In this document: positions 40,783-43,060 of the stretch, one piece after another
Layout: each line of letters begins with the position of its first letter
How positions within the stretch are numbered: position 1 is the stretch's first letter
From: Escherichia coli
GTDB lineage: Bacteria > Pseudomonadota > Gammaproteobacteria > Enterobacterales > Enterobacteriaceae
Assembly (NCBI RefSeq): GCF_003334255.1
Contig: NZ_QOWU01000012.1
Length of the DNA stretch: 64,000 nucleotides
Direction: 5' to 3' (one strand)
Notes under the pieces: model-generated
Told to the model about the DNA's origin: nothing
Database searches by the model: none
The model's input: only the letters and a program-made list of their open reading frames with translations
Translations under genes and position numbers: made by a program

Positions 40783-41571
40783 TTATTTCAGTTCGAGTTC
40801 GTTCATTGCAGCAATGCTGAAACCGCCGTCAACGTGGACCACTTCACCGGAGATACCGGCAGAGAGATCGGAGCACAGGAATGCCGCAGAGTTACCCACA
40901 TCTTCAATAGTAACGGTACGGCGAATCGGGGTAACGGCTTCGCAATGAGCCAGCATTTTGCGGAAGTCTTTGATACCGGAGGCCGCCAGAGTACGGATCG
41001 GACCAGCAGAGATGGCGTTAACACGCACACCTTCCGGACCCATCGCGTTCGCCATATAGCGCACGTTCGCTTCCAGAGACGCTTTTGCCAGACCCATAAC
41101 GTTGTAGTTCGGGATAGCGCGCTCAGCGCCAAGGTAGGAAAGGGTCAGCAGGGCAGAACCCGGATTCAGCATGGAGCGGCAAGCTTTTGCCATTGCAACG
41201 AAGCTGTAGGAGCTGATGTCGTGGGCAATTTTGAAGCCTTCACGGGTAACGGCGTTAACATAGTCACCATCCAGCTGATCGCCAGGTGCAAAACCAATAG
41301 AGTGTACGAAACCGTCAAATTTCGGCCAAACTTTCCCCAGTTCAGCGAACATGGTGTCGATGCTGGCATCTTCTGCAACATCGCACTGCAGAACGATGTC
41401 AGAACCCAATTGAGCGGCAAATTCTTCTACGCGGCCTTTCAGTTTGTCGTTCTGGTAGGTGAATGCCAGTTCAGCTCCTTCGCGGTGCATCGCCTGAGCG
41501 ATACCGTAGGCGATGGATAGTTTGCTGGCAACACCGGTTACCAGAATGCGCTTACCGGAAAGAAAACCCAT
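40783..41571 (-). CDS. fabI: Enoyl-ACP reductase, NADH-dependent (262 aa)
   Basis: [16 protein letters not shown]ossmann fold; Y..K catalytic dyad context [23 protein letters not shown]. Confidence 0.97.
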
Positions 41572-41714
41572 AGCTTTAATCCTTATTGTTGATGCTTGTT
41601 GTGCCTGAAAATCAGGCGATTCGTCGTTTTAGTAAACAGTACGAACAGATAAACGGTTATTATAATCAACCTGGCTGTGAGTAGCTATAGTTGCCAGGTC
41701 CGACCGGAGCAGGC

Positions 41715-41775
41715 TGCGGCAGGGGGGGCGCTTTTCCCCTCACCCTAACCCTCTCCCCAGAGGGGCGAGGGGACC
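41715..41775. repeat. GC-rich imperfect palindromic intergenic repeat
   Basis: cccctcaccctaaccctctcccc / aggggcgagggg inverted symmetry; G7 homopolymer at 41722-41728. Confidence 0.5.
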
Positions 41776-42186
41776 GTATTGTGCAAATATTGTTACCCCA
41801 GCAACAAACAGGCTCATACAGCCCCTAACCCTTTCATGGCGATGGCTGGGACGGTTCAGACCTTGCCGAATATTCTCCAGCACCGTCTCCTCATTACAAT
41901 CAATCTCGTTATTCCAGAAACGCAGCACGGTCCAGCCCTGCGACTCAAGCCAGCTAGTGCGCCTGGAATCATAGGCAACTGCTAAATCATGCTGCCCACC
42001 ATCCAGCTCAACGACTACACGCGCCGAGCAGCAAGCAAAATCGAGAATGTAGCTCCCCACTGGATGTTGACGGCGAAATTTGAAATCACTAAAACGTCGG
42101 CTGCGAAGATATCGCCAGAGCTTTCGTTCCTGCAAAGTGAGATTGCGTCTTAAATCACGCGCATTTGATTTAATTTTATCTATCAC
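41740..42186 (-). CDS. ycjD: DUF559 (very-short-patch-repair-like endonuclease fold) protein YcjD, ORF reads 148 aa here
   Basis: DUF559-like N-terminal 110 aa (LWRYLR...FKFRRQ...ELDGGQH...VLRFWNNE); C-terminal 30 aa run into the palindromic repeat. Confidence 0.65.
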   Translation of the reverse strand: MIDKIKSNARDLRRNLTLQERKLWRYLRSRRFSDFKFRRQHPVGSYILDFACCSARVVVELDGGQHDLAVAYDSRRTSWLESQGWTVLRFWNNEIDCNEETVLENIRQGLNRPSHRHERVRGCMSLFVAGVTIFAQYGPLAPLGRGLG

Positions 42187-42253
42187 CTCATTCTGACAAG
42201 ATTTAATCTTTTGTCAGAATGAGGTGAATAATCTGGAAGGAGGATTCAGAAAA

Positions 42254-43060
42254 TTAGCGATCTTTACGCCACGCATCCGCCGTCAATGCCTCGCCAAAAT
42301 GACCGGCAATCAGCCGTTTGGTGAGTTCATGCAGCGGCGATGCCAGCACATCCGCGGTGCTGCCTCGCTCGACAACCTCGCCCTGATGCATCACCAGCAC
42401 CTGGTCGCTAATGTGCTTCATCATTCCGATATGCTGGGTAACATAAATATACGAAATGCCCTGTTTTTCCTGTAATTCCAGCATCAGATTAATCAACTGC
42501 GAACGCATCGACATATCCAGTGAAGCGAGGGCTTCATCGGCAATAATGACTTTTGGGCGCAATATCAGCGCGCGCGCCAGACCCAGACGCTGTTTTTGTC
42601 CGGGTGCCAACATATGCGGATAGTAACTGACGTGATCCGGTAGCAGCCCAACCATACGCATCGTTTCAATAATCTGTTTGCGACGCTGTTCCGGTTCCAG
42701 GTCGGTGTTCAGGCGCAGTGGAAAATCCAGAATTTGCGAGATACGTTGACGGGGATTCAACGAGGTCGAAGGATCCTGAAAAATCATGCGAATACGCTGA
42801 CTGCGGAAGGAATAATCGCCAAAATGCAGTGGATGATCGTCAATCAATAACTCGCCGCTGGTAGGCTCTATCATTCCCGCCAGCATTTTTGCCAGCGTGG
42901 ATTTACCCGAACCATTCTCGCCAATAATCGCCAGTGTCTGGCCTTCACGTAGCGTAAAGCTCAAGGGTTTTACCGCTTCTACGGTCTGACGACGAAACCA
43001 GCCGGTCCGGTAGCGGAACGTTTTACTTAAATTACGCACTTCAAGCAGCGTTTCGATCAT
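42254..43060 (-). CDS. sapF: ABC transporter ATPase SapF (268 aa)
   Basis: Walker A GENGSGKST; last gene of sapABCDF. Confidence 0.9.
   Translation of the reverse strand: MIETLLEVRNLSKTFRYRTGWFRRQTVEAVKPLSFTLREGQTLAIIGENGSGKSTLAKMLAGMIEPTSGELLIDDHPLHFGDYSFRSQRIRMIFQDPSTSLNPRQRISQILDFPLRLNTDLEPEQRRKQIIETMRMVGLLPDHVSYYPHMLAPGQKQRLGLARALILRPKVIIADEALASLDMSMRSQLINLMLELQEKQGISYIYVTQHIGMMKHISDQVLVMHQGEVVERGSTADVLASPLHELTKRLIAGHFGEALTADAWRKDR

Follow-up and report, generated by a model that had tools for sequence, protein, structure and literature searches.

Organization of the fabI-sapF interval

In the window, i.e., the whole stretch of 64,000 nucleotides analysed here, the ycjD gene is flanked by fabI on one side and by sapF on the other, and the three genes are encoded on the minus strand (Table 1). 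The ycjD frame comprises 148 codons, opens with the same GTG start that is annotated in K-12, and codes for a C-terminus that reads HERVRGCMSLFVAGVTIFAQYGPLAPLGRGLG before the stop. As the preliminary description of this DNA had stated, the 3' end of the frame enters a GC-rich palindromic repeat, the inverted arms of which occupy positions 41735-41745 and 41763-41773.

Table 1. Coordinates of the genes and sequence elements at the ycjD locus of the window
Feature	Position	Strand	Basis or remark
fabI	40783-41571	minus	flanks ycjD
BoxC / PIT / TMECO element CCCTCGCCCCTCTGGGGAGAGGGTTAGGGTGAGGGG	41736-41771	minus	exact pattern; Table 1, row 9 of PMC4666352
New TGA stop, in the final G block (GGGTGAGGG) of the TMECO	41740-41742	minus	ORF list, codon map
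ycjD, short (106-bp-deleted) allele	41740-42186	minus	ORF list; sequence identical in NCTC86 and HS
Distal-unit spacer	41772-41821	minus	codon map, Kyte-Doolittle scan
Decayed TMECO-like remnant CCCCTAACCCTTTCATGGCGATGGCTGGGA of the distal unit	41822-41851	plus	aligned to the K-12 proximal element
Residue of the distal, diverged ycjD 3'-end copy	41852-41867	minus	unit-to-unit alignment, codon map
DUF559 (PF04480) coding part, residues 4-110	41857-42177	minus	Pfam
Single remaining copy of the 23-bp direct repeat GAATATTCTCCAGCACCGTCTCC	41868-41890		two copies in K-12
sapF	42254-43060	minus	flanks ycjD

Examination of the palindrome shows that it belongs to a known repeat family. The TMECO consensus, CCCTCNCCC-N3-6-GGGNGAGGG-N3-GGGNGAGGG (PMC4666352), is matched exactly at 41737-41771 on the minus strand, with 0 matches in 100 shuffles, and the 36-nt element listed in Table 1 is identical to TMECO no. 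9, a copy of type A mm with TTA as its second loop, which occupies positions 1,351,204-1,351,239 in MG1655 (Table 1 in PMC4666352). Position 41736 of the window corresponds to MG1655 position 1,351,204, where fabI ends at 1,351,039 and ycjD extends over 1,351,407-1,351,760. The chromosomal position is therefore that of the published BoxC copy upstream of envM/fabI. In the version consulted, the curated MG1655 record has no repeat feature annotated at this site. A search for further copies of the repeat within the 64-kb window returned one copy only, and a 91-bp query around the element matched up to 29 places in a single E. coli genome (median 16; 5,426 genomes).

The BoxC / PIT / TMECO repeats of E. 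coli are also known as intrastrand-triplex repeats (Hoyne/Maher 2000). Bergler et al. first described the motif, as BoxC, in their 1992 envM (fabI) paper, and it was later treated as PIT elements (PMC4666352). For K-12, 33 BoxC copies of 51-59 bp have been counted (PMC5172473), and MG1655 carries 23 TMECO copies, described as always intergenic (Holder et al. 2015, PMC4666352). Formation of a purine-motif intrastrand triplex was demonstrated in vitro by CD and NMR on type A mm oligonucleotides and is unsupported in vivo (PMC4666352). In the same work, small intergenic deletions were found to be over-represented at TMECO loci when E. coli strains were compared, and replication slippage was suggested as their cause.

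At the other end of ycjD, a strong hairpin with 20 base pairs in all occupies positions 42183-42227, where sapF (stop at 42254) is followed by ycjD (start at 42186). As minus-strand RNA, it has a predicted folding energy of -29.9 kcal/mol (z = -6.06 versus shuffles), and both the GTG start of ycjD and the GAGG just upstream are paired within its 3' arm. In N96 the arms are apparently kept by means of changes on both sides, as judged by eye from the alignment. The hairpin could represent the terminator of the sap operon or a structure that occludes ycjD translation. At a permissive threshold, Rfam produced only sub-threshold matches of microRNA type for this hairpin, and none within the coordinates of the ycjD tail and repeat.

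A 106-bp deletion and its effect on the YcjD C-terminus

In the curated MG1655 record, ycjD (b1289; 1351407-1351760) is 354 nt long and codes for 117 amino acids, in agreement with the length of about 117 residues suggested in the preliminary description, and the 148-codon frame is absent from it. The translation of ycjD from a K-12 derivative ends in ENILQELNRRSPSP, followed by the stop. When the fabI-sapF interval of the window was aligned with that of K-12, 682 of 682 positions were identical and one gap of 106 bp, in columns 297-402, was present; substitutions and 1-nt indels were absent throughout.

The earlier proposal thus divides in two: the extension of the C-terminus and its fusion to the repeat are confirmed, and the frameshift or stop-loss by which it was to have arisen, together with the 1-nt indel sought near codon 117, gives way to the single 106-bp gap. 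A 1-nt frameshift or a point mutation in the stop codon would agree with an extension that is real, with a K-12 protein of 117 residues and with a difference of 106 nt, which is not a multiple of three; since the only difference in the K-12 alignment is a gap that removes the stop together with the last 11 codons, such an origin is ruled out and retains practically no probability.

In K-12, two perfect copies of GAATATTCTCCAGCACCGTCTCC flank the deleted segment, at interval positions 297 and 403 and hence with a spacing of 106 bp; the window contains only one of them. The observed pattern is that of a repeat-mediated deletion, namely two direct repeats in the parental allele, one of them kept, and exactly one interval lost. 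The breakpoint lies somewhere within the surviving 23-mer, which codes for codons 99-106 (EETVLENI). Codons 1-106 are untouched, and the last 11 native codons (LQELNRRSPSP) are removed along with their stop.

In place of the 11 native residues, the protein carries a 42-residue tail, RQGLNRPSHRHERVRGCMSLFVAGVTIFAQYGPLAPLGRGLG, which the codon map resolves into four segments. Codons 107-111 are derived from the duplicated copy of the ycjD 3' end, and read RQGLN(R) where the native sequence has LQELN(R). Codons 112-121 (PSHRHERVR) correspond to the decayed second repeat remnant, and codons 122-138 to spacer DNA, read as the hydrophobic segment GCMSLFVAGVTIFAQYG(P). Only codons 139/140-148 (PLAPLGRGLG) and the TGA are situated within the palindromic repeat, which consequently encodes about 10 codons and not the last 30 or so that had been attributed to it. 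In a Kyte-Doolittle scan with 11-residue windows the hydrophobicity reaches a peak of +2.19 at residues 123-135, and the hydrophobic stretch as a whole spans roughly 13-17 residues.

The remnant still contains the counterpart of the native ycjD stop, a TGA (caTGAa), but it is out of frame, because the two units differ by a net 1 nt before it. With the native stop lost and the distal TGA out of frame, the reading frame remains open for 42 codons, up to the TGA inside TMECO no. 9. The same 42-codon open frame is present in K-12 as non-coding DNA downstream of ycjD, so the tail was not shaped by selection for coding. Since a random frame has a chance of about 13%, (61/64)^42, of running for 42 codons without a stop, the open tail is unsurprising in itself.

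The extended frame also contains a weak, terminator-like hairpin whose tail is rich in T (GGGCTGTATGAGCCT GTTTGTTGCT; 41810-41824, minus strand). Its stem consists of only 5 bp, and 3 such terminator-like sites were found where 0.9 would be expected. More speculatively, should this site terminate ycjD transcripts, the mRNA of the short allele would have no in-frame stop.

The sequence features of the protein were compared with those of K-12 YcjD (b1289, P45736-type). The two share residues 1-106, the start, the fabI and sapF neighbours and a full-length DUF559 domain, and they differ in that K-12 YcjD ends in its native 11 residues and the window form in the new tail. Pfam assigns DUF559 (PF04480) to residues 4-110 of the 148-aa form (E = 2.9e-48, score 162.7, model positions 2-108 of 109) and to residues 4-111 of the 117-aa form (score 166.8, model positions 2-109), a difference of 4 bits. 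The domain is intact in the short allele, and residues 111-148 of the tail (38 residues) lie outside it. PGAP nevertheless classifies ycjD of NCTC86 and HS as a pseudogene ("incomplete; missing C-terminus"). The DUF559 match, however, extends to model position 108 of 109, and the replacement affects just 11 residues at the terminus or beyond the domain, so that any loss of function would be putative. The exact 148-aa product is already public (ABV05734.1, AQT99080.1) and occurs on 202 contigs, and the 117-aa form on at least 1,000 contigs. YcjD is listed in the PD-(D/E)XK / Vsr-like superfamily on the basis of a fold assignment (PMC1189080), and the literature consulted provided no biochemical data on its nuclease activity or function.

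It may be asked whether the tail represents a selected new C-terminus, e.g., a hydrophobic anchor or an interaction peptide, that has been kept in the HS/ST167 lineage. The intact DUF559 domain, the hydrophobic stretch and the persistence of the allele in a successful clinical lineage are in keeping with such a role. The tail is, however, built from repeat and spacer DNA, its open frame pre-exists as non-coding DNA in K-12, and a terminator-like site lies inside the extension; the gene is called a pseudogene by PGAP, the allele frequency is about 1%, and persistence is accounted for by hitch-hiking in clonal lineages. We therefore consider a functional tail very improbable. In our judgement, the 38 basic-then-hydrophobic residues beyond the domain probably have no selected function, and would be neutral or mildly harmful to the DUF559 protein.

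An older tandem duplication and the distribution of ycjD alleles

The two 23-mers of K-12 form part of a larger tandem duplication downstream of ycjD. Each duplicated unit comprises ~40 bp from the 3' end of ycjD, a GC-rich element of the BoxC/TMECO type and a spacer, and the period is 106-119 bp across the long alleles (119 bp in N96). Local alignment of one unit with the other gives scores of 65 in K-12 and 110 in N96, compared to 15-16 +/- 2.3 for 300 shuffles (15.2 +/- 2.3 in the K-12 control). Both units were found in every long allele examined, i.e., those of K-12, the B1-type strain 2013C-4225, Q65 and N96, the last of which shows 85.8% identity. In K-12, the units are only about 60-70% alike outside the 23 bp, with indels and one decayed element, and this divergence shows the duplication to be old. 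Owing to the extent of divergence and gapping between the units, Tandem Repeats Finder did not report an array for K-12, N96 or the window.

The distal remnant aligns to the K-12 proximal element, CCCCTCGCTCTTTCAGGGAGAGGGTGACC, with net indels, and at the position of the window's decayed remnant strain Q65 has a near-complete element. The 23-mers are identical (23/23) in the K-12-like phylogroup A allele and exhibit 3 mismatches in B1-type 2013C-4225, which suggests either that gene conversion once acted between the units in the A lineage or that the B1 copies diverged more rapidly. A perfect pair of 23-mers that exists only in the A background would explain why the deletion is seen only there.

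The distribution of the two forms was assessed among 5,426 complete E. coli genomes, 3,346 of which contain the ycjD interval. A 51-nt query specific for the deletion junction is matched at >=99% in 47 of the 5,426 (about 0.9%); K-12-type long alleles align to it at 92%, and B1-type alleles only partially. When the records are ranked by identity, the first ~40 represent the short form (HS, NCTC86, G1/2, G6/7, G8 and ST167/NDM strains), followed by the long form. The short form occurs only where the flanks are >=99.6% identical to K-12, and the long form in alleles at 99.4%, 95-97% and 85.8% identity. Over 24 kb around the site, strains G1/2, G6/7 and G8 share 100% identity with the window. The nesting of the short form within long-form diversity was judged from allele distribution and identity. 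The identity ranking, the count of 47 genomes and the restriction of perfect 23-mers to K-12-like alleles indicate that the short allele is probably a derived, rare deletion within phylogroup A.

The opposite polarity, in which the short form is ancestral and a 106-bp insertion or duplication gave rise to the K-12-type long form, is consistent with alleles that differ by the 106-bp segment alone, and the duplication must once have come from a single-unit state outwardly like the short allele. That ancestor should have retained an in-frame native stop, however, and the short allele is without one. The divergence of the K-12 units, the presence of the duplication in the B1-type, Q65 and 86%-identical N96 alleles, and the rarity of the short allele, on a background identical to K-12, are all at variance with this order of events, which we regard as very unlikely. 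Collapse of a short tandem duplication in the assembly, to which repeats in general are prone, has next to no likelihood: units so dissimilar outside the 23 bp are trivial to assemble, the 47 genomes with the allele are complete and include several independent HS and NCTC86 assemblies, and the contigs with the exact protein come from several sources. This explanation was rejected in view of the recurrence of the allele in independent assemblies.

Additional diversity is evident at the 3' end of the long alleles. The arrangement with the tandem duplication is the usual one in E. coli, represented by K-12, B1, ST69-type and the divergent N96 alleles, and in it the native ycjD stop sits within the proximal element. 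In N96 (locus positions 1846-1880) and Q65 (locus positions 473-507), a complete plus-strand TMECO overlaps the 3' end of ycjD together with its stop; this element is homologous to the K-12 segment missing from the window. The overlapped genes code for proteins of 120 or 121 residues ending in SPSPQPSP. The K-12 and B1 alleles bear a 12-nt deletion inside the overlapping TMECO and end in SPSP, at 117 residues. Such overlap means that TMECOs are not strictly intergenic and that they supply the C-terminus of YcjD. The locus thus exhibits at least three C-terminal variants of ycjD, all of which stem from changes in or around TMECO-type repeats.

These variants may be viewed in another manner, whereby the unit consisting of the ycjD 3' end and a TMECO is a recurrent recombination cassette that provides alternative C-termini of 117, 120/121 and 148 residues, all ending inside TMECO-type repeats, with the 148-aa form, including its basic-hydrophobic tail, functional and selected rather than decaying. 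We think it highly doubtful that the unit acts in this way.

The fabI-sapF site has been described previously as an either/or polymorphism between ycjD and an eefRABCD island, in which the ycjD ORF is conserved at 354 nt across phylogroups A, B1 and C and is 12 nt longer in ST69/ST182 (PMC12817139). Both of these forms were recovered here at the same site, and the 12-nt deletion inside the TMECO of K-12 and B1 corresponds to the ST69/ST182 difference. The passages of PMC12817139 consulted make no mention of the 106-bp-deleted form of 447 nt that is present in the window.

Other arrangements of the interval were also observed. In about 2,080 of the 5,426 genomes ycjD is missing from the fabI-sapF site, and eefRABCD, a TetR regulator with an RND efflux operon, takes its place. 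An example is O157:H7 strain 1130, in which the TetR regulator and RND pump occupy locus positions 2501-5123, at the same site as window positions 41572-42253. An IS1-like element interrupts the interval in ETEC6 (NZ_CP041627.1, 1404669-1406233), where the annotation gives ycjD as two pieces; this constitutes a separate, independent disruption of the gene.

Origin and meaning of the short allele

The short form is very probably a lineage-specific deletion allele of ycjD, produced by a repeat-to-repeat deletion (slippage or short-homology recombination) that collapsed an old duplication. The structure of the allele is seen directly, and we infer the molecular route from its product. The starting point would have been an ancestral long allele of the K-12-like phylogroup A type, with a tandem duplication that carries two perfect 23-mers 106 bp apart. 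The 23-mers would then have recombined, or the replisome would have slipped from one copy to the other, such that one 23-mer and the intervening sequence were lost as a single period of 106 bp. Codon 106 would thereby have been joined to the decayed distal copy, with loss of the native tail and its TGA. Judged by the product, RecA-independent slippage or short-homology recombination seems preferable to RecA-dependent unequal crossing-over.

The event may have been favoured by the structure-prone TMECO elements. A contribution of TMECO structure to the deletion is possible by analogy with the published association between these repeats and small deletions; a 23-bp direct repeat at a distance of 106 bp is, however, sufficient alone. 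Like the loci described by Holder et al. (2015), that of the window has a small deletion near a TMECO. Unlike the published MG1655 copies, which are described as intergenic, the element in the window contains the stop of the extended ycjD frame, and the end-points of the deletion are in duplicated ycjD sequence and not in the TMECO proper. Like other deletions between short direct repeats in bacteria, the present one kept one repeat and lost exactly one period; it differs in that the repeats are part of an older, diverged duplication rather than a chance occurrence, and is otherwise in no way unusual.

As a strain polymorphism, the short allele is ordinary; the repeat locus at which it lies is known to be unstable, and the allele had already been deposited publicly and flagged by a standard annotation pipeline. 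On its own it matters little, and it raises no new biological question. It does account for the differing annotation of one locus across E. coli records, whether as a protein of 117 or 148 residues or as a pseudogene, and may be of help to those who annotate HS, NCTC86 and ST167 genomes and to work on the fabI-sapF site, with its alternative ycjD and eefRABCD contents. The locus also provides a worked example of an intergenic region rich in BoxC/TMECO repeats in which a small structural variant rewrites the end of a neighbouring gene.
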